Source of the DNA: Bacillota bacterium
GTDB lineage: Bacteria; Bacillota; Dehalobacteriia; UBA4068
Length of the DNA stretch: 64,000 nucleotides
Reading direction: 5' to 3'
NCBI GenBank assembly: GCA_024679955.1
Contig: JAILCQ010000009.1
Span: 76,814-140,813, forward strand
In this document: piece after piece, positions 26,761-48,308 of the stretch
Layout of the letters: each line of letters starts with the position of its first letter
Numbering within the stretch: position 1 is the stretch's first letter
Program-made: the position numbers and the translations under genes
Notes under the pieces: generated by a model
What the model saw: only the letters and a program-made list of their open reading frames with translations
Told to the model about the DNA's origin: nothing
Database searches by the model: none

Positions 26761-27723
26761 TTATTCGTATTGCTGCGCCGGCGCGTCGGCCCAAAGCTTT
26801 TCCAGATTATAGTATTGCCGTTCGTCCTGAAGGAAGATATGCACCACCAAAGAACCGAAATCCAGCAATATCCAGCGGCTGTCCCGGTAGCCTTCCATGC
26901 GCAGCAGGGCGGCGCCGGCTTCTTTCAGTTTTTCGCAAATATGGTCGGCAGTGGCCTGGGCCAGCCGGTTGTTGTTGACGCTCATGATCAGAAAATAATC
27001 GGCTATGGTGGTGATGCCTTTCAATTCCAGGCTGAGCAGGTCCGCCGCTTTTTTCTCCTGTGCCGCCCGTACGGCCAGTTGCAGCATGGTTTCCGAGGAT
27101 AATGTTTGCTCCATATCGTTTCCTCCGTTATATTTTTCCTTCAGCGTTTGATAGGTCTGTAAGGCCATCGGGTGGCAAGGCTCCTGTTTGCCGGCCAGAT
27201 AGCTGAACGTATAGGCCAACGCGGCCAAAATGGCTCGATCCAAATCGATATAGGCCTGGTCGCGCAGTTGTTCCAAACCGGGCCAGCTTTGCCGCAAGGG
27301 TTCGATGATGTCGGCCAGGAAAATGATTTTGGCCAAAAGGCTCATCTGCGGGTGGCCTACGGTGTGATATTTTACCGCCTCCAGGATCTCCGCATCCGTT
27401 ACGCCCCATTCCTGCTCCAAAATGGCCGCGCCTACCGGCGCGTGCAGCAACGGGTCATGCCGGTTTTGCCATTCATCCAGCTCAAGATGCAGCTCTGCCG
27501 CTTTTTGCCGCAATTGCGCCGGGGTATAACAACGCCCCACGTCATGGATCAAACCGGCCAGATAGGCTTTTTCTTTGGGGACTTGCCAGCGTTCGGCCAG
27601 GGCGGCCGCGGTTTGCGCCACGGACAGGCTGTGCTGGAAACGGCGGGGAGACAGGTCCCGGGCCAGTTTTTGGCGGTAGGCGTCGATTTGTTCGCTGCTG
27701 TTCATGATATCGTCCTTGTACAT
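26761..27723 (-). CDS. rsfS: YqeK (HD-domain Ap4A hydrolase) fused in-frame to ribosome silencing factor RsfS
   Basis: 320-aa ORF. Residues 1-205 form a YqeK HD domain. From MEQTLSSE onward the sequence is near-identical in pattern to B. subtilis RsfS (KGITTIADYF, RMEGY, YYNLEKLWADAP). An internal GGAGGA RBS lies 6 nt before the MEQT ATG. Confidence 0.8.
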   Translation of the reverse strand: MYKDDIMNSSEQIDAYRQKLARDLSPRRFQHSLSVAQTAAALAERWQVPKEKAYLAGLIHDVGRCYTPAQLRQKAAELHLELDEWQNRHDPLLHAPVGAAILEQEWGVTDAEILEAVKYHTVGHPQMSLLAKIIFLADIIEPLRQSWPGLEQLRDQAYIDLDRAILAALAYTFSYLAGKQEPCHPMALQTYQTLKEKYNGGNDMEQTLSSETMLQLAVRAAQEKKAADLLSLELKGITTIADYFLIMSVNNNRLAQATADHICEKLKEAGAALLRMEGYRDSRWILLDFGSLVVHIFLQDERQYYNLEKLWADAPAQQYE

Positions 27724-28406: not shown

Positions 28407-29678
28407 CTATTCGGTATAGTCGAAACTGTTGCCGGCGATATTCACCGTATCGCCCACTTGTACGCCGGCTTCACGCAGCGCGTCTTCCAAACCCATTTTA
28501 ACAAATATCCTTTGCATGCGCAACACGGCGTCTTCGTTATTGAGATCCGTCATTTTTACCAGTTTTTCAATGCGTTCGCCGCTGACCTGCCATATGCCGT
28601 TATCGTCCCGGAGGATGGAAAAAGGCTGCTCGTCCCGAACCACGGTGGTCAGCATTTCTTCCCGGGCAGGCTCCGTTTCCAGGGGCGGCAATTGGCTGAG
28701 GGTTTGCCGCAGGGCGGATAAAAGCTGGGGGATGCCCTGGCCGGTCAGGGCGGATATGGGAAAGATAGGATATTTCCCGTCTACCCTTTTTTGCAATTCC
28801 TTCAATTTTTCCGCCGCGTCCGGCATGTCCATCTTATTGGCGGCAATGACGGCGGGTCTTTGCAAAAAGTCGTTTTTATACAGACGCAATTCTTCTTCAA
28901 TGGCGGCCAGGTTTTCCCAAGGCTCTTTTTCCGTCAGGCCGCTCATATCCAAAACATGTACCAAAATGCGATTCCGTTCCGCATGGCGCAAAAAGCGATG
29001 CCCCAGGCCGATGCCGGAAGCCGCCCCCTCGATCAAACCAGGTAAATCGGCGATTACCAGGTCGCTGTGATCGTCAAAACGCACCACGCCCAAGTTGGGA
29101 TTGAGGGTGGTGAAGGGGTAGTCGGCGATTTTCGGCGTGGCCGCGCTGACCCGGGACAGCAGGGTGGATTTGCCCGCGTTGGGAAAACCGACCAGACCCA
29201 CATCGGCGATGAGCTTCAGCTCGAAGATCAGCCATTTTTCCTGCCCCGGTTCCCCGTTTTCCGCATAGCGGGGGGCTTTGTCATGGGCGTTGGCAAAACG
29301 GCTGTTGCCCCGGCCGCCCCGGCCGCCTTTGGCCAGGATCACTTTTTGGCCCGGCAGGGTGATATCGGCCAGGATCTGCCCATGCTCGTCTTTGACCACT
29401 GTGCCCAAAGGCGTTTGCAGCAGCAGATCTTCGCCGTTGGCCCCGTGCATGTTTTTGGCCATGCCGTTTACGCCCTTTTCCGCTTTGTAATGGCGGCGGT
29501 ATTTGAAATCGGTCAGGGTGGTCAGCATGGGGTTGCCCACGGCGACCACATTGCCGCCCCGGCCGCCGTCGCCGCCGGCGGGGCCGCCCATAGGTATATA
29601 TTTTTCCCGGCGAAAAGCGACCATACCATTGCCGCCGTCGCCGCCTTTGACATAGATTTTTACATAATCATGAAACAT
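28407..29678 (-). CDS. obg: GTPase Obg
   Basis: N-terminal Gly-rich Obg fold (GGDGGNGMVAF, GGPAGGDGGRGG), G-domain GFPNAGKST, and the C-terminal OCT domain. Confidence 0.95.
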   Translation of the reverse strand: MFHDYVKIYVKGGDGGNGMVAFRREKYIPMGGPAGGDGGRGGNVVAVGNPMLTTLTDFKYRRHYKAEKGVNGMAKNMHGANGEDLLLQTPLGTVVKDEHGQILADITLPGQKVILAKGGRGGRGNSRFANAHDKAPRYAENGEPGQEKWLIFELKLIADVGLVGFPNAGKSTLLSRVSAATPKIADYPFTTLNPNLGVVRFDDHSDLVIADLPGLIEGAASGIGLGHRFLRHAERNRILVHVLDMSGLTEKEPWENLAAIEEELRLYKNDFLQRPAVIAANKMDMPDAAEKLKELQKRVDGKYPIFPISALTGQGIPQLLSALRQTLSQLPPLETEPAREEMLTTVVRDEQPFSILRDDNGIWQVSGERIEKLVKMTDLNNEDAVLRMQRIFVKMGLEDALREAGVQVGDTVNIAGNSFDYTE

Positions 29679-30126
29679 AGGTCTATTCCCTCCGTTTCCC
29701 TATTATACGCATATATCGAAAAAATAGTCAATTGCCGCGCCCGGTCTTATTGCGGAACAAAGGCCGGAAAAGAGGATTTTTTTCGCTTTTGCCGCTATAA
29801 AAAATCAAAGAAAAATGAAAGGCCTTTGATTTTTTCTCTGGCAATATCAGAAGGTATATAGTATAATAAGAATTAAAATATGGGATAGTATTTTGTTTTG
29901 CCGAAACGCGGGGAAATACGAAAAACGTAAACGGCAGGAAAGCCCCCTGCGTGACGGCAAAATATAGCGATAGATCGATGGAAAGCGGCCCTTTAGCGGC
30001 GGCGGCGCAACCATTTGCCGCCCGCGGCGGGAACGGTTGCCGCAAAAGTAATTCTTATCCTTGCCTTAGGCAATGCAAGCAGGCAATTCAAATAAAACAG
30101 TCATTCCAAAGTAAAGGGGAAATTCT

Positions 30127-33100
30127 GGTGAATACAAATTATGATGAACAAAACGTATCGGAGACGCTAACAGACAAAGTGGATATTCCGGAATTGGCTT
30201 TGGATCATGAACAAGCGGAATTGGCCGCGGCGATCGCCCCGCAGTCCAAGTACAGCGATGAAGATATTGCCGCTTTCGAGCAAGCCAAGGAAATCGCCAT
30301 CAAAGCGGCCGAGCAATTGACCGAGGCGCGCCGGGTTTTATCCCAAAGCGAAGACGAAGCCGCCAAGGCGGATACCGCCTATCAGGCGGTAGCGGATCTG
30401 CCGGAAAAATTGCTGGCCGACGAAGAAGAGGCGAAAACCGTGGCAAAGCTGGCCGCCGCCCTGGTGGTGGATACCCAGGTGACAAAAAGCCTGGCCGACG
30501 AGGAATACGCCCGGCTGTTGACCAAAGCGGCGGAAGATCTGGAGGAAACCGCCGCCCAGGCGAAAGCCGATTTGGCGGAAAAAAAGGCGGCCCGCATCGC
30601 CGCGGAGTATGAAAAAGCCCATGTGTTTGTGGAAAAAGCCAGGACTCGCCTGATCGCGGATCGGGCGGCGGTAAAAGCGGCGGAGGCGAAACGCGGCCGC
30701 ATCTCGGCGGAAAACGACATGACGGTCAAGGTGGCCGAAGCGGATATGAACTTTTCCACCCATTTGCAGGAGCAAGCCGCCCAGGCCGCCCAGGAAGCCG
30801 ATCGGAAACTGAAAGAAGCGGAACAGGATCAAACCCGGGCAATAGAAGAATCCAAGCGCCTGCAGGATGAAGAACTGAACCTGCGCAGAAACAGCGAGTT
30901 GGAGCTGGAAAAGCTGGCCTTGTCCCATCAAGCGCCGTTGAAAGCGTGCGCGGAAAAAACTTACCAGGCCAAAATCGACGAAGAAAACGCCAAGCAAGAG
31001 GCGGACGACACCGAGAGAGTCGCGGCGGAGAAAAACGATATCTGGCATACGGCGCAGCAAAAAGCCAAGCAAGCCGCGGAGGATGAGGAAAGCACCAGGC
31101 AAAATACCGCGGCTGATCTGGAACGGGTGACCAACGAAGCTTTTGAAGCCCGCAATATCGCCAGCGCCAAGGCATCCGGCCTGGCCGCGGCGGCGGAATC
31201 GGCCAAACAAGCCGCCCTGGAAGCCACCCAGCGGGCGGAAGAAGCGCAAATGGCGATCCCGCCGGTGCAGGACGAAGTCAAAATGCGGGAAGAAGCTTTG
31301 GCGGCGGCACGGCATACCTCAAATGAAGCGGCGCGTATGGCGGCCAACGCCACGGCGGCCCGGGTCGCGGTAAAAGAAACTTCCTCCGCTTTGTTGGCCC
31401 AGGCGGAAAAAATCCTCCAGGATACGGCGACGAACGCGGAAAAACTGGTGGAAAAGAGAGATTTGGAATATCAAACCGCGGTGAACACCCTGGAACAGCT
31501 GCAGGCGCAAGCGGAAAGCGCCCTGCATGCCGCCAAGGACGCCGCGCAAATCGCCCAGGATACGGAAAGCGCCAAGAACAAGGCGGAAGATGATTTCCAT
31601 CAGATCTGCCTGGAAAACGACGACAGGATCAAATCCACCCGGGAAACCATGGAGCGGATGTGCAACGACGCCCAGGCGGCCCGCATTACCGCCGCCGAAG
31701 AAGTGGTGATCGCAGAAAAAATCGCCCGGGAAGCGGACGCCCAGGCGGAGCAGAAAAAGCAGCTGTATTTGCAGGCGGTAGACGCCAGGGAAAAAGCCGA
31801 GGAACACGAGCAAGCGATCACGGCGCAAACCCAGGAAGAAATGCGCGCGGCCCAGGAAAACTGGGACAGGGAAATTGCGGATATGCAATCTTCCTGCCGG
31901 GCGGCGGAAGAAGCGCAAGCGGCCCGCATCGCCCAGCGGGAATCTTTGGAATTGGCTGCGCAGGAAGCGGCCAAGACTTTGCAAAAAGCGGAAACCGGCA
32001 AGTTAGCGGCTTCTAAAAGATTGGCGGCTGCTGTGGCGAGAGCGGCGATCCGGCTGAAAGCCGCCGAAGAGGAATTGGCGCAGATCGCCCTCAAGGAAAA
32101 ACCGGCGCAACTGGCGTTTGAAGAAGCTTTGCAGGCGGAAGTATTGATGAAGGCCCAGTATAATGAAGTCGCTATCGCGGAAGCCCCTGCGGCGGAAGAA
32201 ACCCCTGCTGTAGAAGAAGCGCCTGCGGCGGAAGAAGCGCCTGCGGCGGAAGAAGCCCCGGCGGCAGAAGAAGCCCCGGCGGCAGAAGAAGAGCCTGCGG
32301 CGGAAGAAGAGCCTGCGGCGGAAGAAGCCCCGGCGGCAGAAGAAGCCCCGGCGGAAGAAGAAGCCCCGGCGGCGGAAGAAGCCCCTGCGGCGGAAGAAGC
32401 CCCTGCGGCGGAAGAAGCCCCGGCGGTAGAAGAAGAGCCGGCGGCAGAAGAAGCTTCCGCGGAGTCGTTCTTCCGGCAAGCGGTGGCTTTGGCGGTGGAA
32501 AAGGCCGCTGCCAAAGCGGATCTGGACGCCAAAAATGAACTTGCGCCAGAGGATAAACCCGCCTTTGCGCCGCCTTTTGTCATGGCTGCCGATACGGTGA
32601 CCCCGGCAAAGGCCTCCCATGATATCATACAAAACGCTTTGGATCAACTCACCATCGAGTTGGATCGGGCGGAGGTGGAAGCGGCTTTAGCGGCGGTACC
32701 GGGGGTGAAACCCACGGCGGACAACAATGCCGCGTCCGCGCAGCATACGGCGGCGGACGATCCTGCGCCGCAAGGAAAAACGACCGCTCATGCCGATCCG
32801 CAATTGGCCGGTCTTTCTTCGGTACTGGAGGCGGCCCACGACGAATTGGCGAAACTGGACGAGTTGATGACGCAAAGCCAGGCCATGCATCAGCCTGCCG
32901 CAGAAGGAGAAGCTTCTCCCATTGCGGAGACGGCTGCGGAAAAAACGACGGCGGCGAAACCGGAAATGCAAGGCCCGGTATGGGATAAAGACGAAAAGCC
33001 GGCGCATCGCAAACCCTGGGACCGTTTGTTCGGCAAAGGAAAACGGCATAACGGCCATGGCAACGGCGAGGAAAACGGAGCGGCGGACAAAGCGGCAGAG

Positions 33101-33448
33101 ACGGCTGCGGAGAAAACGCCGGTAGCGGAAAAGGCAACGGAAGCGCCGGCCGCCAAAGAAAAGGCGGAAGCGGAAAGCCGGCCGGCAGCAGCCCCGGCGG
33201 CGCAGCCTCAGCCTGCCGCCGAGAAAGCGGAAGCCGTTATCGACGAGGCGGACGAATTGCTGCGCTTGGCCAAAAACGAGGCGGAGGTTTTGGCCCAGGC
33301 GGCCAAGGATGGCGGCGATCATGCTTTGGACAAGCTGAATGACGCCAACTTGCAGCAGGCCATCGAAACCCGGGCCGCCGAAAAGAAAGAAGCGGAAGAA
33401 GAAGCGGAATTGCGCAAAGCCATTTTTTCAATGATCGATAAAAAATAA
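30127..33448 (+). CDS. large acidic Ala/Glu/Lys-rich coiled-coil protein with a tandem (EEAPAA)n repeat
   Basis: About 1107 aa from a GTG preceded by aaagggg. There is no signal peptide or TM segment, heptad-like A/E/K/Q composition throughout, about 15 hexapeptide repeats, and a basic G/H-rich segment (KGKRHNGHGNGEENG). Confidence 0.7.
32180..32455 (+). repeat. 18-bp coding tandem repeat (gaagaagcccctgcggcg)n, about 15 units
   Basis: Direct, near-perfect 18-bp units encoding EEAPAA, with occasional T/V/E substitutions. Confidence 0.9.
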
Positions 33449-33545
33449 TGCCTTTTCAGGCAACACGGCGACAAGGCTGTTTCAAAACCTGCAGCGGCTG
33501 GCTGCCGAACGTTTTGAAGCAGCCTTTCTATTTAGGAACGGAGGT

Positions 33546-33821
33546 ATGGGGATGAGGGCTGTTATTTCTGTAGTCGGTAAGGATCGCACCGGCATATTGG
33601 CAAAAGTGAGCGGCAAATGCTTTGAACTGAACGCCAATATCGTCGATGTGACGCAAACCATTTTGGAAGATTTATTCGTCATGGTCATGTTGGCGGAAAT
33701 CGACCGCATCAATTGCGATTATCAGCGTTTCGTAGCCTTGTTTACGGAATTGGCGGAAGAAAACGGTTTGAAGATCCATGTGATGAACGAAGATATCTTT
33801 AACGCCATGCATCGTATTTAG
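33546..33821 (+). CDS. ACT-domain protein (UPF0237)
   Basis: About 90 aa ([17 protein letters not shown]), the conserved partner of UPF0210. Confidence 0.8.
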
Positions 33822-33829
33822 GAGGAGCT

Positions 33830-35197
33830 ATGCTGAATATTCGCGATATATTAGAAACCATTCATATGATCGACGAGGAGCATCTGGATATCCGTACCGT
33901 CACCATGGGTATTTCTTTATTGGACTGTACGGATAGCGATGTGAAGAAAGCTTGCGAAAAAATATATGACAAAATCTGCCGCAAAGCGGAAAACCTGGTG
34001 AAAGAAGCGGAGCTTTTGGCGGAAAAGTACGGGGTGCCGATCATCAACAAAAGGATTTCCGTTACCCCCATTGCCTTAATGACCGCCGCCGCCGCGGACA
34101 GCAACGACGATACCTTGCTGCAATACGCTTTGACCATGGACAAAGCGGCCCAAAGCTGCGGCGTGGATTTTATCGGCGGCTACGGGGCTTTGGTGCATAA
34201 AGGCTTGAGCGCCAAGGCAAAGGCTTTTTTGCGCTCCATACCCCGGGCCCTGGCGGAAACGGAGAAAGTATGCTCTTCCGTCAATGTGGGCTCCAGCAAA
34301 AGCGGCATCAATATGGATGCGGTGGCGATCATGGGGGAGGTCATCCATGAAACCGCCCGGCTTACCGCCGGCGCCAATTGCATCGGCGCCGCCAAATTGG
34401 TGGCCTTTTGCAATGCCGTGGAGAACAATCCCTTTATGGCCGGCGCTTTTCACGGCGTGGGCGAAGGGGACGCCTGCATCAACGTAGGCGTATCCGGGCC
34501 CGGAACGGTGCAGGCCGCTTTATCCCGGCATCCCCAGGCCGATTTCAGTCAATTGGCGGATATCATCAAACGCACTGCCTGCAAGATCACCCGGGTGGGG
34601 CAGTTGATCGGCGAGGAAATCTCCCAGCGCCTGGATATCCCCTTCGGCATTGTGGATCTGTCCTTGGCGCCTACCCCGGCCCGGGGCGATTCGGTGGCCC
34701 GCATCCTGGAGGAGATGGGCTTGCCTTTCTGCGGCGCTTGCGGCACCACCGCGGCCTTGGCCCTGCTGAACGACGCGGTGAAAAAAGGCGGGGTTATGGC
34801 TTCCTCCCGGGTGGGCGGGCTTTCCGGCGCTTTTATACCGGTGACCGAGGACGCCGGCATGATCGAAGCGGCGGAAAAAGGCGCTCTGTCCATCGAAAAG
34901 CTGGAAGCCATGACGGCGGTTTGCTCCGTGGGCCTGGATATGATCGTGATCCCCGGGGATACCCGTCCGGAAGTGATCGCCGCCATTATCGCCGACGAGG
35001 CGGCCATCGGCATGATCAACAACAAAACCACCGCCGTGCGTTTGATCCCGGCTATCGGCAAACAAGTGGGGGATCGTTTGGAATTCGGCGGCTTGCTGGG
35101 CGGCGGCCCGGTGATGCGGGTCAGCGATTTGTCGCCGGTGGATTTCGTGCGCCGCGGCGGCGTGATCCCCGCGCCCATCCACAGCCTGCGCAATTAA
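33830..35197 (+). CDS. PFL-like UPF0210 (DUF711) family protein
   Basis: 455 aa matching the UPF0210 family over its full length. The 2-nt spacing after the ACT gene indicates coupling. Confidence 0.8.
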
Positions 35198-41858: not shown

Positions 41859-42932
41859 CTATGCGTGTATGCCTTCCTGATAATCCGTGGAAAGCTGTAT
41901 TTCCGCAAAGGTGTTCATTTCATTGATGATGGCCAAAGCGTCGTCCACAATACCCATGGCGATGGGGCAGCCGCTGCCTTCGCCCAAGCGCATATCCATG
42001 AGCAAAAACGGCTTCATATCCATAGCCCGGCAGGCCATTTCATAGGCCGGTTCTTTGGAGATATGGGAAGGAATCAAAAAGTCTTTGACCAAAGGCTGGA
42101 AGCAATAGGCCAGCAATGCGCCGGCAATGGCGATCACCCCGTCGACGATGATGGGGATGCGATAGTAAGCCGCGCCGATATACATGCCGCACATGGCGGC
42201 GATATCCAGGCCGCCGACTTTGCTGAGGATATCCAAAAAGTCGTTGGGATCCGGCCGGTGCAGGGCCAAAGCGTCCGCGATCACCTGTTTTTTCCGGGCG
42301 TAGGCTTCATCGGTCAGCCCGGCGCCCCGGCCCACGCCATGATGCAGATCATAATCCTGCAAAACGGCTTTGATGCAGGCGGCGGCGGTGGTGGTATTGC
42401 CCATGCCCACTTCGCCGGCGCTGATGATCGTATAGCCGCTGTCCATGGCTTCTTTTACCAGGTTAAAGCCGGTTTCCACCGCTTTTTCTGCGATTTCCCT
42501 GGGCATAGCCGCTTCCTTGGCCATATTATTGGTGCCGTTGGGCATCAGTTTGACCCGGCGGACATTGCCCTGGACTTCGCCGATAATGCCCATATCCACG
42601 GTATAGAGATCGATGTTATGCTGCCGGCAGAGGACGGTGATGCCGCAATTGACGCCCTGGCAGTAAAAGCCCATCAGCAATCTGGTGAATTCCTGGGGGC
42701 TGGCCGTCACGCCTTCGGCATATACGCCGTTATCCGCGCCGAACAGATAATGGGCCTTTTTGTCCGCCCGGTTTTTCACCTGACCGGTGATGCCGGCGAT
42801 TTGGATCGATATTTTTTCCAGCATGCCCAGACTGCCCGCCGGTTTTACCAAAGAATCCTGATATTCAGCCGCTTGTTTCATGGCTTGCGCATCCAAAGGT
42901 TGGATCGCCGCCTTGATTTCTTGCCAATTCAT
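41859..42932 (-). CDS. cobT: nicotinate-nucleotide--dimethylbenzimidazole phosphoribosyltransferase
   Basis: 357 aa with the CobT fold and the GEVGMGNTT motif. Confidence 0.9.
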   Translation of the reverse strand: MNWQEIKAAIQPLDAQAMKQAAEYQDSLVKPAGSLGMLEKISIQIAGITGQVKNRADKKAHYLFGADNGVYAEGVTASPQEFTRLLMGFYCQGVNCGITVLCRQHNIDLYTVDMGIIGEVQGNVRRVKLMPNGTNNMAKEAAMPREIAEKAVETGFNLVKEAMDSGYTIISAGEVGMGNTTTAAACIKAVLQDYDLHHGVGRGAGLTDEAYARKKQVIADALALHRPDPNDFLDILSKVGGLDIAAMCGMYIGAAYYRIPIIVDGVIAIAGALLAYCFQPLVKDFLIPSHISKEPAYEMACRAMDMKPFLLMDMRLGEGSGCPIAMGIVDDALAIINEMNTFAEIQLSTDYQEGIHA

Positions 42933-42963
42933 TTTTTACCTCCCCAAGATACGAAGATAAATT

Positions 42964-43626
42964 CTAAAGAATATGCATGATCACTTCGCGAAACTCCCGC
43001 ACATGGGTTTCCATGGCTGTGCGGGCTTTTTCCTGGTCATGCTCCATGATGGCGGTCAGGATATCTTTCAGGTTATCCATCGAAGCCGCCACATTGCCGA
43101 TATTGCTCATGTTGTAATACCAGCCCCGGGTGCAGCGGTCGTCCACTTCTTCGCAGATTTCGTTTAAAGATTGATTCAAAACACAGCTGCGGATGATCAG
43201 ATGAAACTGCTGATCCAAAAGCGCCAGTTGTTCGCTGCTTTTTGCCGGGTTATGCTCTTTGATCTCCTGAATGATCGCCTGCAAGGCGTCGATTTTTTCT
43301 TCGGTGATGGTTTCAACGGCCAAGGCAGCGCTGAGACCTTCCAACACCTCGCGGATTTGATATAGGTTTTTCAATTCCAGCAGATTGATATCCTCCGCAA
43401 AGGTGCCGAAACGGGGCAATATTTTCAATAGCTTTTTATTCTGCAACTTCAGCAACAGTTCGCGCAAAGGCGTACGTCCGATGCCGAATTCGTCGCATAA
43501 TTCTTTTTCATTGATGATTTGCCCCGGTTGATAATGTAAATATACCAGACGGTGACGCAGTATATCATACACTTCTTCCTTGTCTTTTTTTTGGACAGCG
43601 GTGGCGGATTGGCTTGCCTGTTCCAT
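42964..43626 (-). CDS. GntR-family (FadR/FCD subfamily) transcriptional regulator
   Basis: N-terminal wHTH (GQIINEKELCDEFGIGRTPLRELL) and an FCD C-terminal domain. It is divergent from the BCCT-mtmB cluster. Confidence 0.85.
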   Translation of the reverse strand: MEQASQSATAVQKKDKEEVYDILRHRLVYLHYQPGQIINEKELCDEFGIGRTPLRELLLKLQNKKLLKILPRFGTFAEDINLLELKNLYQIREVLEGLSAALAVETITEEKIDALQAIIQEIKEHNPAKSSEQLALLDQQFHLIIRSCVLNQSLNEICEEVDDRCTRGWYYNMSNIGNVAASMDNLKDILTAIMEHDQEKARTAMETHVREFREVIMHIL

Positions 43627-43707
43627 ACTTATACGCTCCTAATAATATGTAAAAGATGTTTATTATAATGGAAGCTATTATTCATTATACAGTGATTCCT
43701 GCCAAAA

Positions 43708-43721
43708 GGCAATATATTGCC
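43708..43721. promoter_or_regulatory. perfect 14-bp palindrome GGCAATATATTGCC (candidate GntR operator)
   Basis: Self-complementary sequence in the divergent intergenic region between the GntR and BCCT genes. Confidence 0.4.
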
Positions 43722-44308
43722 AAGAATTGTATAAAGAAAATATATAACGAAGTAAACTTTTTCTATCTCCGCAAGTTTTTTGTCACTAAGATAATAAATT
43801 TTATTTATCGCATTGGCAGGAAAAAGCTTTTTCCTATCGTATATAAATTATATATCAATAAAATATTAATAATATATTATATGGATTTTCGATTCAGGCA
43901 ATGCTGTAACGATAGATTCATGTTCATGGTTGAAACAGGCGGCAAGCTCGGATTGGCGCATAGAAAGGAAAACAACAAGGGAGGCATAGACAAACAATCG
44001 TGATATGCCGTTTGCAGGCGACCGCCGGGACGCAATGGGCGCGCCGGCGGTTGCCGTCATAGGGAACGGTATTTTGATCGGAGCTTGCGGCTTGTCGCAA
44101 TAACGCAGCGCAGACAGAATAACGAGAACAGGTCTTTCTATGTACGCCGCAGATTTTCTACTGGCGGCCGGTCGGACGGATGGCGGGGATCCGGGACTTC
44201 AAGCGGCAGAGTGCATATACGCAGCTGTACGCCCTGCTTTGATGCATGGAGTTTTCCCGCCGGGCATGAGAACCCGTTGCGATTTGAAAATAAGGAGTTG
44301 AGTTTACC

Positions 44309-45907
44309 ATGAACAGCCTACAAACATCCGGTCAGCCTGAACCGGCAGGTAAGACCATACATGACTTGAACAAAGGCGTTTTTTGGCCGGCCTTGATCGT
44401 TATCGGTTTGATTGTCTCCTTGCTGTTGCTATTTCCCAGTCAAGGCAATTTGACGATCAATGCCACGTTGCACTGGATAGAATACCGTTTGGATTGGTTT
44501 TTTGAGATTGGCAATTTCGGTTTTTTGCTCTTTGGACTGTATATGGCTTTTGGTAAATATGGCAAAGTAAAAATGGGAGATCCTCTATCGAAGCCGGAAT
44601 TTTCCACTTTAAGCTGGGCGGCGATGTTGTTTTGTACCGGAATCGGTTCCAGTTTGATCTATTGGGGCGTTTGCGAACCTTTGTCTTATTGGGGTTGGCC
44701 CCCCTTTGGACTGGAGGCCTATTCTTTGGAAGCCGCGGACTGGGGCGTGCCCTATGTGATGTTCCATTGGGGGATCATGGGATGGGTGCCTGCCGTTATC
44801 CCCGGCTTGGCGGTGGGTTTTGCCTATCACAATCGCAGCAACGGATCCTTGGCCATTTCCCAGGCCTGCGTGCCTTTGATCGGGCAGGCCAGGGCGAATG
44901 GCCTGTTGGGCAAGATCATTGATATTCTGGTGATTTTCGGTATCATGGGTGCTGCGGCCACTTCTTTAGGCATCGGCGTTCCGCAGTTGACGGAAGCGAT
45001 ATCCCAGTTGTTCCATGTTCCCGTTACCTCGTTTATGCAGATCATGGTGCTGCTCATATGGGTATGCATATTTGGTTTCAGCGTGTACAGCGGCTTGTAT
45101 AAAGGCATCAAGAAGCTCTCGGATATCAACGTTTATTTAGCCTTCTTTTTATTGGCCGCCGTTATCGTTTTGGGGCCAACCGCGTTTATTCTCTCCAATA
45201 TGACCAATGGCTTTGGCCTGATGCTGCAGAATTTTGTGCGGATGTGTTTCTACACCGACGCCATCGGCGGCAGCGGTTTTCCTCAGGAGTGGACGGTATT
45301 CTTTTATGCCTGGTGGATTTGCTACGGCCCGCTGATCGGCATTTTCCTGGCGCGGGTTTCCAAAGGCCGTACCTTCCGGGAAGTGGTTCTGTGCTGCATC
45401 CTTTTTGCGTCGCTGGGCTGCTGGCTGGTGACCGGCATTTTCGGCAGCTATGCCGTGAACCTGCAAACAACCGGAGCCGTGGATTTGCTGGGGATTTATG
45501 CGGAGCAAGGCGGCGCGGCCGCTATGGTGGCAACCATTACCTCCTTGCCTGGGGCTGAATTCTTCTTAGTGGTGTTCATCGTGTTACAATTCATTTTTAT
45601 GGCCACCACTTTGGATTCCGCCGCTTTCGTGATGGCCTGCAATTGCACCAAAAATTTAAAAGGCGAGGAACAGCCCAATCGCAATTTGCGGGTGATTTGG
45701 GCATGTATGCTGGGCGCTTTGGGTTTAGGCGTGCTGCTGATCGGCACACTCAAAGCGGTGCAATCCACTTCCATCATTGGTTCCGTACCGATCTTTCTCG
45801 TGTGGATCGTCTTGATCTGTTCCCTGTTGCGTTGGCTAAAGAGCACCTATGGAAGCGGCCCCATCGATGTGAACAAACCGGCGCCCCGGGATGAAGACGC
45901 GGCTTGA
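44309..45907 (+). CDS. BCCT-family (betaine/carnitine/choline) transporter
   Basis: 532 aa, 12 TM segments, BCCT signature region (WTVFFYAWW..). Confidence 0.9.
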   Translation: MNSLQTSGQPEPAGKTIHDLNKGVFWPALIVIGLIVSLLLLFPSQGNLTINATLHWIEYRLDWFFEIGNFGFLLFGLYMAFGKYGKVKMGDPLSKPEFSTLSWAAMLFCTGIGSSLIYWGVCEPLSYWGWPPFGLEAYSLEAADWGVPYVMFHWGIMGWVPAVIPGLAVGFAYHNRSNGSLAISQACVPLIGQARANGLLGKIIDILVIFGIMGAAATSLGIGVPQLTEAISQLFHVPVTSFMQIMVLLIWVCIFGFSVYSGLYKGIKKLSDINVYLAFFLLAAVIVLGPTAFILSNMTNGFGLMLQNFVRMCFYTDAIGGSGFPQEWTVFFYAWWICYGPLIGIFLARVSKGRTFREVVLCCILFASLGCWLVTGIFGSYAVNLQTTGAVDLLGIYAEQGGAAAMVATITSLPGAEFFLVVFIVLQFIFMATTLDSAAFVMACNCTKNLKGEEQPNRNLRVIWACMLGALGLGVLLIGTLKAVQSTSIIGSVPIFLVWIVLICSLLRWLKSTYGSGPIDVNKPAPRDEDAA

Positions 45908-45983
45908 GCAGCCGGGTTTTTTATTCTCTGTTGAGGAAAATCTATAAAGACCTGTTTTCGTTATGCAAAATTCCAGTTTTCCC

Positions 45984-46012
45984 TTGACAATTTCTTATAA
46001 TATTATTAATAT
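45984..46012 (+). promoter_or_regulatory. sigma-A-type promoter of the corrinoid-protein/mtmB-like operon
   Basis: TTGACA, 17 nt, then TAATAT, followed by an approximately 200-nt leader. Confidence 0.45.
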
Positions 46013-46211
46013 ATTAGTAACATATAACATGAGCCGCAAATAAATTGGCGCTGCAAAGTTGATTTCAAGATACAGGAAAAAGGCAAAGCCATCCGTCGTA
46101 AAAGCCGCTCCGGCAAGATGTTGTTTGCATATGCTGCGATCAAGCTGAGGCGTAAGCTGTTGCTTGCCAAGCTTTGGCCGCATAGGAATTCACTTTAAGG
46201 AGGTTGTAAAA

Positions 46212-46847
46212 ATGTCTGATTTGTATGCGCAAATGAAACAGTCCATACTGGATTTGGATAGCGATTTGGCGGTAGAGTTGGCGGAAAAAGCCCTGGACGC
46301 GGGTATGGCTCCTTTGGAGGCCATAGAGAAAGGGTTTGCCCCCGGCATGGAGGAAATCGGCGAAATGTTTGACCGCCTGGAAATATTCTTACCGGAAGTG
46401 ATTTTGGCGGCGGACGCGATGATCGCCGCTGTGGAAAGACTGAAGCAAAACATCGAGCATGCGGAGGTGGGCTTTCAGGGACGGGTGGTCATCGGCACGA
46501 TCAAAGGCGACGTGCATGATATCGGCAAAAATATTATCAAAACCATGTTGATCGCCACCGGCTTCGAGGTATTGGATTTGGGTAAGGACGTTTCTCCCAA
46601 CACCTATGTGGAAAGAGCCGTAGAGGCGGACGCGGATATCATCGCTATGTCGGCCTTATGTACCTCCACCATGCTGCATATGCCGGATGTGGTGCGTATC
46701 CTCAACGAAGAAGGATTGCGCAGCCGCTTCAAAGTCATTGCCGGCGGGGCGCCGGTTTTGCCCGACTGGGCGTATAGTTGGGGCGCCGACGGTTATGGAG
46801 ATAGCGCCTCCGAAGCCGTGCAATTGTGCAAACGACTGACCCGTTAG
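46212..46847 (+). CDS. corrinoid (B12-binding) protein, MtmC/MtbC-like
   Basis: N-terminal B12-binding_2 cap plus a Rossmann B12 domain carrying the DVHDIGKN (DxHxxG) motif. AAGGAGG RBS. Confidence 0.9.
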   Translation: MSDLYAQMKQSILDLDSDLAVELAEKALDAGMAPLEAIEKGFAPGMEEIGEMFDRLEIFLPEVILAADAMIAAVERLKQNIEHAEVGFQGRVVIGTIKGDVHDIGKNIIKTMLIATGFEVLDLGKDVSPNTYVERAVEADADIIAMSALCTSTMLHMPDVVRILNEEGLRSRFKVIAGGAPVLPDWAYSWGADGYGDSASEAVQLCKRLTR

Positions 46848-46910
46848 CGGGAAGGGTAGAAACCTCAAACATGCTCGTGAAAGAATAAACAAAAAGGAGG
46901 CGTATCTGCC

Positions 46911-48308
46911 ATGTACGTTAGTTATCAGGAAGTATTACATCGCGCCGAGACCGGAGCCTTGATGAAAGAATCGGATTTCGACCGCAAGGTGGGCCAAACG
47001 GCCCGGGAATTGGTAAAAAAATATGATTTGCAGTATGATCCTGATGTGGCGGTCAATTATGACGACGATATCGCCGACCGGTTTTTTGAAGCGGCTTTGG
47101 ATTTCTTTGTGGAAGTGGGCGTGTATATCACCGAATACCAGCGGGTGGTGAAGTTCACCAGGGAAGAAACCTTGGATACCATTGCCGGCGTCCTTTCGCA
47201 AGTGCAATATGGCCGCAATAAGGACGCCAAAGATGTTTGGAAACGAAGAATCGAAGATTATATCGATCCCTTTATCGTGTTCAGCCCGGTGGGCAATCCG
47301 GTGGATCAGGAATTGTTCCAGGCTTTTATCCAGCACTATGCTCAGGAGCGGATCACGGACGCTTTGTTCAGTCCTGTTTTGACCAAATTCAACGGCCAAC
47401 CTGTGAAATCCGACGTGGCCTCGGAAATGGAGGCTTCCATCTGGAATTTGAAGACCCTGCGGGAAGCCGCGCGTATGGTGGGCCGTCCGGATATCGGTTT
47501 ATGCAACTGGGCTTCTACGGCGGAGCGCACCGACGTGGTCATCGCCCTGGCGGATCCCGCTTTCGGTTCGATTGTCAACGACGGCGTTTTGGTTGCGGCC
47601 ATCGCCGAAATGAAAGTGGATCAGGAGCGTCTGAAAAAAGTCAGCTACTTGCGGCAAAGAGGCTTCATACTGGAAGGCCTGCTGGGGCCGCTGATGGGCG
47701 GATATGCCGGCGGCCCGGCGGAGACCTCGATCTGCCTGATTGCCCACCATTTTCTGGCCGCTTGTGTCTATCGTACCGATATCAATGTAGGGTTCCCGAT
47801 CCATATCAATTATTGTTGCAATACCACGGCGGAAATGCTCTGGCTGACCTCTATCACCAATCAGGCTTTGGCCAGGAACTGCAACATACTTAAAATGGCC
47901 AATATGTTCAATCATGCCGGGCCGAATACCGAATGCTGTATGTTGGAATCCGCCTGTTACGGCTTAGCGGCCACCGTTTCCGGGGCCGATGCTTTGGATT
48001 TGGGCGCTTTGACCATGAACCGCCATCCCATGCGTTGGGCGGTGCAGGAACCGAAACTGGCTGCGGAAGTGGGACATATTGCGGCAAGGATGGGTATGAC
48101 CAGGCAGCAAGCCAATACCATTGTAAAAGCCTTGCTTCCCGAGTATCAGCATTTGCTGGGAACGATGCCTCTGGGGTCCACGTGGACGGAATGCTATGAT
48201 ACGGAGCGCTTGGTACCCACCGGCGATTATGCGGATTTGGTAGAGCGGATGCATAAAAAGCTGGAAAGTTTCGGCTTGGATTGGCAAGCGCTTCGGGTGG
48301 ATAGATGA
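46911..48308 (+). CDS. monomethylamine-methyltransferase (MtmB) family substrate:corrinoid methyltransferase, non-pyrrolysine homolog
   Basis: 465 aa colinear with Methanosarcina MtmB, sharing motifs such as GGYAGG, STNT.E and a C-terminal TECYD motif. The MtmB Pyl position (GRPGMGV-O-GPETS) aligns with GRPDIGL-C-NWAST, so Pyl is replaced by Cys and there is no in-frame TAG. Confidence 0.7.
   Translation: MYVSYQEVLHRAETGALMKESDFDRKVGQTARELVKKYDLQYDPDVAVNYDDDIADRFFEAALDFFVEVGVYITEYQRVVKFTREETLDTIAGVLSQVQYGRNKDAKDVWKRRIEDYIDPFIVFSPVGNPVDQELFQAFIQHYAQERITDALFSPVLTKFNGQPVKSDVASEMEASIWNLKTLREAARMVGRPDIGLCNWASTAERTDVVIALADPAFGSIVNDGVLVAAIAEMKVDQERLKKVSYLRQRGFILEGLLGPLMGGYAGGPAETSICLIAHHFLAACVYRTDINVGFPIHINYCCNTTAEMLWLTSITNQALARNCNILKMANMFNHAGPNTECCMLESACYGLAATVSGADALDLGALTMNRHPMRWAVQEPKLAAEVGHIAARMGMTRQQANTIVKALLPEYQHLLGTMPLGSTWTECYDTERLVPTGDYADLVERMHKKLESFGLDWQALRVDR

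Follow-up and report, generated by a model that had tools for sequence, protein, structure and literature searches.

A stretch of 64,000 nucleotides from a Bacillota bacterium (GenBank assembly GCA_024679955.1, contig JAILCQ010000009.1, positions 76,814 to 140,813 of the forward strand), hereafter the window, carries next to obg a long open reading frame (ORF) that is a real, conserved and unannotated gene of an unnamed family, here called family B. Its product is an acidic protein of 1106 amino acids, in which a long alpha-helical rod is followed by an acidic region predicted to be disordered and by a conserved C-terminal tail. The acidic region contains a tandem repeat at a site that is a turnover hotspot, where four lineages carry four unrelated repeat units. 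We tentatively favour, at a little under an even chance, the reading that B is a cytoplasmic non-enzymatic scaffold with a self-associating rod, an acidic spacer and C-terminal docking to the membrane and/or a partner. The ORF had been singled out in an earlier note made from the sequence alone (the original prediction). Below, loci of relatives bear L numbers and database proteins P numbers; L092_A and L092_B denote the proteins of locus L092. The parts of the gene, all on the + strand of the window, are as follows.

30128..33448, + strand: coding sequence of the 1106-residue acidic protein (family B), based on the conserved start, the match to L092_B (E = 1e-217) and the ratio of nonsynonymous to synonymous differences (pN/pS).
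30257..32161, + strand: N-terminal alpha-helical rod, residues 44-678, from AlphaFold2, the gap-free alignment and periodicity.
30398..30568, + strand: first copy of a module shared with a partner protein A, residues 91-147 (motif hidden Markov model (HMM), 66.2 bits), at a predicted helix break at 119-124.
31292..31453, + strand: second copy of the shared module, residues 389-442 (motif HMM, 60.4 bits), at a low-confidence helix break at 411-419.
32162..33226, + strand: acidic Pro/Ala/Glu-rich region, residues 679-1033, predicted to be non-helical or disordered (AlphaFold2 coil with a predicted local distance difference test score (pLDDT) below 50).
32180..32449, + strand: 15 copies of an 18-bp repeat encoding (EAPAAE)n, residues 685-774, from Tandem Repeats Finder and the unit list.
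32615..32689, + strand: conserved island SHDIIQNALDQLTIELDRAEVEAAL, residues 830-854, near-identical in L088, L092_B and L093/P0020.
32996..33055, + strand: cationic amphipathic motif KPAHRKPWDRLFGKGKRHNG, residues 957-976, a candidate membrane-targeting helix by charge, hydrophobic moment and conservation.
33227..33445, + strand: C-terminal helical hairpin, residues 1034-1104, ending in the tail EEEAELRKAIFSMIDKK (AlphaFold2 helices 1034-1060 and 1064-1104).

Homologues were identified with phmmer, run exhaustively on 1.84 billion representatives. Among its 248 matches, P0006, P0047 and P0020 are true B homologues; nearly all the others come from unrelated proteins that match within the EEAPAA repeat alone (residues ~680-780), and these were discarded as compositional. 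P0006 (1228 amino acids) and P0047 (1282 amino acids) align with residues ~45-620 of the window protein, and P0020, a 343-residue fragment at a contig end, aligns with residues 827-1105. The full-length orthologue L092_B (1199 amino acids, GCA_964407445.1), to which the phmmer E value above belongs, aligns without a single gap over residues 1-680 of the window protein, with 46-78% identity per 100 residues and ~60% overall. The most conserved part, residues 101-200 with 78% identity, is the region of the first module copy. B is under purifying selection because pN/pS of the rod is 0.32, with synonymous sites saturated, and the ratio of nonsynonymous to synonymous substitution rates (dN/dS) is 0.17 for the C-terminal part when compared with L088, the closest relative. 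The corresponding dN/dS values of the flanking genes are 0.06 (DUF711) and 0.03 (ACT), and B evolves about 5 times faster than its neighbours (dN 0.34 vs 0.06). The original prediction had named two outcomes that would overturn it: purifying selection and 680 gap-free residues speak against the one, a frameshifted pseudogene, and no trace was found of the other, an enzymatic or SMC/ATPase domain in the orthologues. Hmmscan against Pfam-A (E <= 0.1) returned 0 families for the window protein, and NCBIfam, PHROG, PADLOC and the PDB, searched by sequence and profile, gave no significant match for B or A. The features by which we recognise family B were all found, namely a collinear rod with two modules, an acidic variable middle, a tail EAELRxxIF(S/Q) and an orientation divergent from obg; its members include the window protein, L092_B, P0006, P0047 and P0020.

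The gene lies in a frame that is open from 29951 to 33448 (+) and ends in a TAA stop. Translation starts at GTG 30128, with an AGGGG Shine-Dalgarno sequence at 30115-30119, 8 nucleotides 5' of it, and the block comprising the ribosome-binding site, the GTG and the first codons (30092-30151) aligns with the start of the L092 orthologue. The start at 30127 and the length of 1107 amino acids given originally are therefore each off by one. The frame stays open for 59 codons 5' of GTG 30128, from GTG 29951 (29951-30127, +). The in-frame extension is not conserved and is without counterpart in L092; it could lead gene callers to a wrong product of 1165 amino acids. The composition of the protein (25.6% Ala, 15.5% Glu, 7.3% Lys and 6.2% Gln; 128 Lys and Arg vs 235 Asp and Glu, net charge -107) agrees with the acidic, A/E/K/Q-rich protein described earlier. 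So does the lack of a transmembrane-like segment (highest 19-residue Kyte-Doolittle mean 1.06) and of a signal peptide-like N terminus (MNTNYDEQNVSE...) in the window protein.

Two AlphaFold2 models were made, one from the single sequence (pLDDT 52) and one of the N domain from an alignment of four sequences (pLDDT 70.9). Both runs agree on a layout of helices at ~22-679, coil at 679-1033 and a helix-turn-helix at 1034-1104, and the helices of the N domain span residues 22-118, 125-264, 271-376, 383-414, 420-621 and 628-679. The family-averaged hydrophobicity of the rod shows a periodicity of 3.5-3.6 residues (z 8.5-9.8 vs shuffles) and autocorrelation peaks at lags 7 and 11. Therefore, the strong family periodicity together with these lags suggests that the rod packs by Ala-rich helix-helix contacts. 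For the coiled coil of the original prediction, heptad analysis of the one sequence by its large hydrophobic residues gives a weak signal, and the periodicity is strong in the family average.

The following acidic region, with a local net charge of -20 to -3 per 50 residues, retains only 30-35% identity to L092_B except in two conserved islands, and the net charge of the B orthologues ranges from -102 to -125. Tandem Repeats Finder reported the array in the window at 32180-32454 with a period of 18, 15.3 copies, 87% matches and 0 indels. Its 15 in-frame units, mostly EAPAAE, comprise 9 DNA variants with 4 adjacent identical pairs, and the longest exact self-match is 44 bp. The number of about 15 units proposed earlier is accordingly right, but the units are not near-perfect copies. 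The arrays found in the relatives, and the corresponding stretch in the distant clade, differ as listed here.

Window: unit EAPAAE, 18 bp, 15 copies.
L088/L089, the closest relative (DUF711 90% identical): unit ATEEVVEA, 24 bp, at least 13.4 copies, 94% matches.
L092_B: unit AEQAA, 15 bp, 35.9 copies.
L093/L086: unit AEPxVV, 18 bp, at least 11.1 copies.
Distant clade (P0006, P0047): no repeat, but a non-repetitive acidic Pro/Glu-rich stretch of 400-500 residues.

The arrays share one position in the protein, just 5' of the conserved segment FFQEAVALAVEKAAAKAD / DIIxDALDQxTIELDRAEVEAAL, and L081 has no tandem repeat at this site. The units of the four lineages are alike in acidity and Ala content but unlike in proline content and predicted conformation, and selection seems, from these comparisons, to act on the length and charge of the spacer rather than on its sequence. 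The unit lengths are all multiples of 3, and therefore slippage changes the length of the protein and does not turn the gene ON or OFF; a phase-variable switch was rejected on this ground. The repeat instability suspected earlier is supported, and more strongly than proposed, with unrelated units replacing the repeat in every related lineage: the suggested comparison among relatives revealed that the unit type itself differs (18, 24, 15 and 18 bp).

Three elements beyond the repeat are conserved, the first being the island listed above. The second lies in the basic Gly/His patch KPAHRKPWDRLFGKGKRHNGHGNG at residues 957-980, which was correctly noticed in the original prediction. The motif KPAHRKPWDRLFGKGKRHNG within it has a charge of +6 in 20 residues and ties for the most basic 20-residue window of the protein, and its region has the highest 11-residue hydrophobic moment in the window protein (0.72). 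The pattern [WF]x1-3[KR][LIV]F occurs exactly once in each close B orthologue and also at the N terminus of L092_A; the variants of the motif read HRKPWDRLFGKGKR in the window and L088, HKRPWGKLFSFASRK in L092_B and AKKPWNKLFNWGLRK in L093. The motif, in its form RKPWDRLFGKGKR, resembles the C terminus of Pseudomonas aeruginosa MinD, KKGFLQRLFGG (PDB 6riq); MinD is targeted by an amphipathic helix that is short (PMC8155659). The third element is the tail, in which no B protein, those of the distant clade included, departs from E1090, E1092, A1093, L1095, R1096, I1099, F1100 and S1101. The tails EAELRRLIFSSFK, EAELRRLIFSNFE and EAALREAIFSMIDKDQK of P0006, P0047 and P0020 are near-identical to EAELRKAIFSMIDKK in the window, with the consensus E-E-A-x-L-R-x-x-I-F-S across both clades, and this invariance persists at an Obg identity of only 68% between the clades.

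In six relatives (L081, L083-L085, L087 and L092), B is adjoined by a second gene, A, which lies directly 5' of it; coordinates for four of them are given here.

L092, 231-4931: gene A.
L081, 4626-7928: gene A.
L083, 4629-7931: gene A.
L087, 6637-9939: gene A.

The A proteins are all-helical and acidic, with 1566 amino acids in L092 and 1100 in the distant clade, and L092_A is homologous to the 1100-residue proteins (hhalign probability 96.8%, E 3e-10, 428 columns). A and B share a module of ~55 amino acids with the consensus ARxxAxxAxxLxxDAxxAKxxxDxxxxxLLxxAExxL, of which there are 2 copies in each B protein, 2 in L092_A and 1 in the 1100-residue A proteins. An HMM of the module built from B only scored 33.2 and 23.9 bits on L092_A, vs a maximum of 7.2 among 1000 composition-matched shuffles. 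Judged from the sequences, A and B complement each other in their cationic elements: 6-8 consecutive lysines close the 1100-residue A proteins, as RRKKKKKK(K), whose B partners are without the W..LF motif; the window has a B with the cationic motif and no A. L092_A starts with KNRKSGFFARLFNK, which includes the MinD-like KSGFFARLFNK, and L092_B has the cationic motif as well. No A gene was found anywhere in the 64-kb window. The promoter block of B in the window is homologous to the promoter 5' of A in L092, and by this alignment gene A is, relative to L092, absent between promoter and B in the window. In L087 (10001-13877, in a 508-kb ENA contig) B is split into 444 and 820 amino acids, and in L084 (3874-7177, in a Logan contig) A is split into 828 and 240 amino acids; such splits may reflect true disruptions or, in DNA of low complexity, indels from sequencing.

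The carriers of family B are a few uncultured Clostridia metagenome-assembled genomes (MAGs), from the gut by their source labels. The lineage of the window is rare, as a search with the neighbouring DUF711 protein gave only 3 clusters at 83-90% identity, the next being at 71%. Looking up the exact sequences of the B, ACT and DUF711 proteins returned no record, but the window DUF711 protein is 100% identical to NCBI MCR4962586.1 (PFL family protein). An earlier DUF711 scan of genome contigs, in which the close relatives later found by the DUF711 search were not among the matches listed, showed no large A/E-rich ORF in the 64-70% identical Clostridia that were. A word-index search with the whole protein returned no homologue, its candidates being swamped by low-complexity words, and one with the N domain of P0006 returned one member only. 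Overly degenerate patterns kept two metagenome scans with family alignments from yielding a confirmed locus. Of six short-read contigs from close relatives, five (L086, L088, L089, L091 and L093) begin in or at the B repeat. Family B is sparsely represented in protein databases because the repeat breaks short-read assemblies; protein sets derived from MAGs systematically lack it or have it cut short. Copy numbers in MAGs may be collapsed, and the repeat copy number in the MAG-derived window could likewise have been collapsed by assembly.

The surroundings of B in the window contain the following features.

28407..29678, - strand: obg, the divergent neighbour (Pfam GTP1_OBG, MMR_HSR1, DUF1967).
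29838..29867, + strand: promoter-like site, CTGGCA / 18-nucleotide spacer / TATAAT (consensus scan, 10/12 matches).
29868..30127, + strand: leader of ~260 nucleotides with a local GC-rich hairpin cluster and the Shine-Dalgarno sequence (fold z -1.96, marginal).
33473..33529, + strand: terminator-like long hairpin between B and ACT (fold -39.4 kcal/mol, z -3.15).
33552-33821, + strand: ACT (PF13740), 3' of B.
33830-35197, + strand: DUF711/UPF0210 (PF05167), 3' of ACT.

The position next to obg is common to the family. Obg is adjacent and divergent in 5 distant-clade loci (L081, L083-L085 and L087), where the layout is rsfS < nadD-yqeK < obg / > A (1100 amino acids) > B. The layout in L092 is A (1566 amino acids) > B > ACT > DUF711 / < rpmA < rplU, and the first 29 nucleotides of this locus align with the window sequence beside the obg start. 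The sub-lineage of the window (L086 and L088-L093) is the only one in which ACT-DUF711 follows B; L087 does not have the pair there, and none of 80 other Clostridia loci has the pair within 10 kb of obg or rpmA. The original prediction had treated the conserved ACT/UPF0210 pair as the meaningful neighbour and had proposed looking for the gene between obg and this pair in relatives: the obg side is present in the distant clade and the ACT side is absent in L087. We rejected a functional link of B to ACT/UPF0210 in view of the lineage-specific adjacency and the terminator-like hairpin between them. This hairpin has the arms GGCTGTTTCAAAAC ... GTTTTGAAGCAGCC followed by a U-rich tail; its stem is retained with base changes in L088, L092 and L093, and its loop carries an insertion of ~170 nucleotides in L093. 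The hairpin was not found in any of 76 further Clostridia loci at the position 5' of ACT, and it matches no Rfam family. It is probably the terminator of B, but could instead be a leader for ACT-DUF711.

Upstream of B, the promoter block 29826-29868 aligns with L092 70-111, 5' of gene A there, and the conservation of the leader with L092 is limited to the last ~40 nucleotides (30092-30127). The GC-structured upstream region of about 450 nucleotides proposed earlier was not borne out: the 449-nucleotide spacer between obg and B has 40-49% GC, under the window mean of 54.5%, and neither it nor the window gave an Rfam match. A riboswitch or structured RNA was rejected here, given a fold z of only -1.96 vs shuffles and the missing Rfam match. 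A defence-system component was also rejected.

Elsewhere in the window, yqeK (HD domain, residues 27-140) and rsfS (215-310) lie in one uninterrupted ORF at 26761-27723 (-); in the distant relatives it is instead nadD and yqeK that are fused (394-413 amino acids), with rsfS separate. The region 41859-48308 encodes a CobT-like phosphoribosyltransferase, a GntR regulator (by synteny with L088), a BCCT transporter and an MtmB/MttB-family methyltransferase, which suggests quaternary-amine (betaine-type) demethylation; L088, the closest relative, has this cluster too. Outside B and its neighbours, the window encodes ordinary metabolism and transport, with a phosphoketolase, an Mrp antiporter, CobT, BCCT, an MttB-like methyltransferase and an F-type ATPase.

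The anatomy, conservation and synteny of B are shown; how the protein works is inferred. In the scaffold reading, the fixed-length rod of ~635 residues would self-associate via coiled-coil or helical-bundle packing, carrying two helix-break-helix modules of ~55 amino acids in common with the partner A. The acidic unstructured spacer would be selected for length and negative charge and be rebuilt by in-frame expansion or replacement of tandem repeats. The cationic motif RKPWDRLFGKGKR may dock the protein on the anionic membrane surface in the manner of the targeting helices of MinD and FtsA, and the C-terminal hairpin with its EAELRxxIFS tail may bind a conserved partner or mediate oligomerisation. 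B would possibly work with the paralogous A protein where A is present, and its role in the cell might be in division, shape or a polar scaffold.

Several observations weigh against this scaffold reading. The heptad signal of the single sequence, scored on large hydrophobics only, is weak, so that the rod cores would have to be Ala-rich. The AlphaFold2 models are monomers of low to moderate confidence (the pLDDT values given above, with predicted template modelling scores of ~0.26), and Foldseek against the PDB returned generic long-helix proteins only, 0 of them at E <= 0.001. The resemblance to MinD extends over ~11 residues, which are internal and not terminal. Proximity to obg alone offers no functional clue, and, with A missing from the window, B there must act alone or with an unlinked partner if the pair acts jointly. 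Finally, all members of the family come from uncultured MAGs or metagenomes.

A more ambitious version of the scaffold, which we consider rather unlikely as a whole, makes A and B an undescribed two-protein cytoskeletal or polar-scaffold system, peripherally membrane-tethered, specific to one uncultured lineage of gut Clostridia and encoded divergently from obg. The paralogous rods would carry interchangeable cationic anchors (the MinD-like helix on B or A, poly-Lys on A), and the B spacer would serve as an adjustable ruler or brush, whose length is reset by repeat slippage in each lineage.

An unlikely explanation, though less so than those that follow, is a cytoplasmic polyanion without membrane attachment. 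Its bulk negative charge would be what functions, in a PopZ-like scaffold that forms condensates or a hub, in buffering cations or in mimicking nucleic acids, and the rod would provide only multivalency. The net charge of -107 in the window protein and -102 to -125 in its orthologues, the free change of spacer sequence under retained acidity and the disordered middle between helical ends would all fit; a conserved cationic amphipathic island within the acidic region would not, and the polybasic or amphipathic ends of the A partners point to a specific anionic surface. The gap-free rod of 680 residues moreover indicates a constraint on length and not mere multivalency. The host, a Clostridia lineage, also brings to mind a sporulation morphogenetic or coat scaffold, similar to SpoVID/SipL, made in the mother cell and placed on the forespore surface. 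Coat and exosporium proteins are commonly acidic and fast-evolving, with lineage-variable repeats such as B has, and SpoVM-type amphipathic helices target the forespore membrane, as the B motif could likewise do. Yet no LysM, SpoVID or other sporulation domain was found, none of the 23 window ORFs scanned against Pfam is a sporulation gene, and the promoter resembles a housekeeping one with the -10 element TATAAT, which leaves this role a decidedly unlikely one.

The long helical rod, the hypervariable repeat and the roughly fivefold faster evolution, in hosts that dwell in the gut by their source labels, recall a surface or secreted fibrillar protein (M-protein- or adhesin-like) whose repeat is varied by host or phage selection. 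We regard this as very improbable: besides the N terminus and hydropathy described above, neither an LPXTG motif nor an SLH or cell-wall-binding domain was found in the window protein, no secretion-system genes lie nearby in the window, and what is most conserved are the termini and the internal cationic motif instead of a wall anchor. A spurious or decaying low-complexity ORF without function is hardly credible. Low complexity, the lack of a database family and the split genes in L087 and L084 speak for it; they are opposed by the full-length gap-free orthologue, by a pN/pS well below 1 with start codon, ribosome-binding site and promoter conserved, and by the invariance of the C-terminal tail across the two clades.

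If the scaffold reading of B is true, these genes represent an unannotated structural-protein family and its partner family in poorly known gut Clostridia, and they add to the small set of bacterial scaffolds that are neither tubulins nor actins. They would also be a natural example of a region kept for length and negative charge while repeats rebuild its sequence at one site. Worth following up are the constant position beside obg, the module that A and B share, the motif similar to that of MinD, and the repeats that arose four times independently at one site.

Compared with known systems, B could not be placed in any established family. The Scy/FilP rod is said (Walshaw et al. 2010) to be built of an unusual 51-residue coiled-coil repeat. 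The hydrophobicity of family B has no such periodicity (lag 51 z -1.6, lag 102 z 0.2), and Scy/FilP membership was rejected for lack of the repeat. DivIVA membership was excluded by the absence of PF05103 in the Pfam-A search and in the orthologues. The original prediction of a scaffold and not an enzyme survives in part: the helical, cytoplasmic type of protein without an enzymatic or SMC domain was supported, and the assignment as Scy/FilP-like or DivIVA-like was not, since there is no DivIVA or other Pfam match and lag 51 gives z -1.6. An SMC/RecN/MukB-type ATPase was rejected because neither B nor the A proteins contain a Walker A motif ([AG]x4GK[ST]); the sole NCBIfam SMC match was to the coiled-coil part of L092_A, with 19.7 bits vs a cutoff of 567. 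A TolA/EzrA type was rejected without a transmembrane anchor or a Pfam or NCBIfam match.

Individual parts of B recall other systems. The motifs RKPWDRLFGKG of B and KSGFFARLFNK of L092_A, of the form +,+,x,aromatic,x,+,L,F,G, come close in pattern to KKGFLQRLFGG of MinD, one of the MinD/FtsA-type targeting helices (PMC8155659). Unlike in MinD and FtsA, the motif of B is internal, ~130 residues from the C terminus, and B is neither a ParA/MinD ATPase nor an actin homologue, its membrane binding being a proposal. FtsZ consists of a folded domain, a variable disordered linker and a conserved C-terminal peptide. B likewise has a conserved structured N-terminal part, a linker free in sequence but always present, and a short, highly conserved C-terminal peptide that probably binds a partner, but it is without the tubulin/GTPase domain, and its linker is extremely acidic with lineage-specific tandem repeats. 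The Pro/Glu/Ala-rich spacers of TonB/TolA and the Ala-Pro linkers of E2 lipoyl domains are extended spacers between functional domains, and the Ala/Pro/Glu-rich (EAPAAE)n is similar to both. In contrast to TonB/TolA, B has neither the N-terminal membrane anchor nor the TonB/TolA C-terminal domain, and the spacers of its orthologues use Pro-free units (AEQAA, ATEEVVEA). The polar landmarks HubP/FimV share with B a large cytoplasmic region that is acidic and repeat-rich, and a proposed hub role (PMC12918733). They have a LysM-like domain, a transmembrane segment and a C-terminal FimV TPR domain (PMC12918733), all of which are absent from B, and they occur in a different phylum.

The closest overall resemblance is to FilP, Scy, crescentin and the cyanobacterial coiled-coil-rich proteins (CCRPs), which have a long, mostly helical rod with near-heptad periodicity and are cytoplasmic and non-enzymatic (PMC6599971, PMC10873595, PMC7002697). 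B has the long central helical rod that characterises Scy, FilP and crescentin (helices at 22-679 with the periodicity given above), which is a matter of resemblance only. Unlike them, it shows no sequence or profile similarity to these proteins and has an acidic disordered region of ~350 residues as well as a conserved C-terminal tail, both of which they lack. By analogy with FilP, Scy, crescentin and the CCRPs, B probably self-associates as a structural element.

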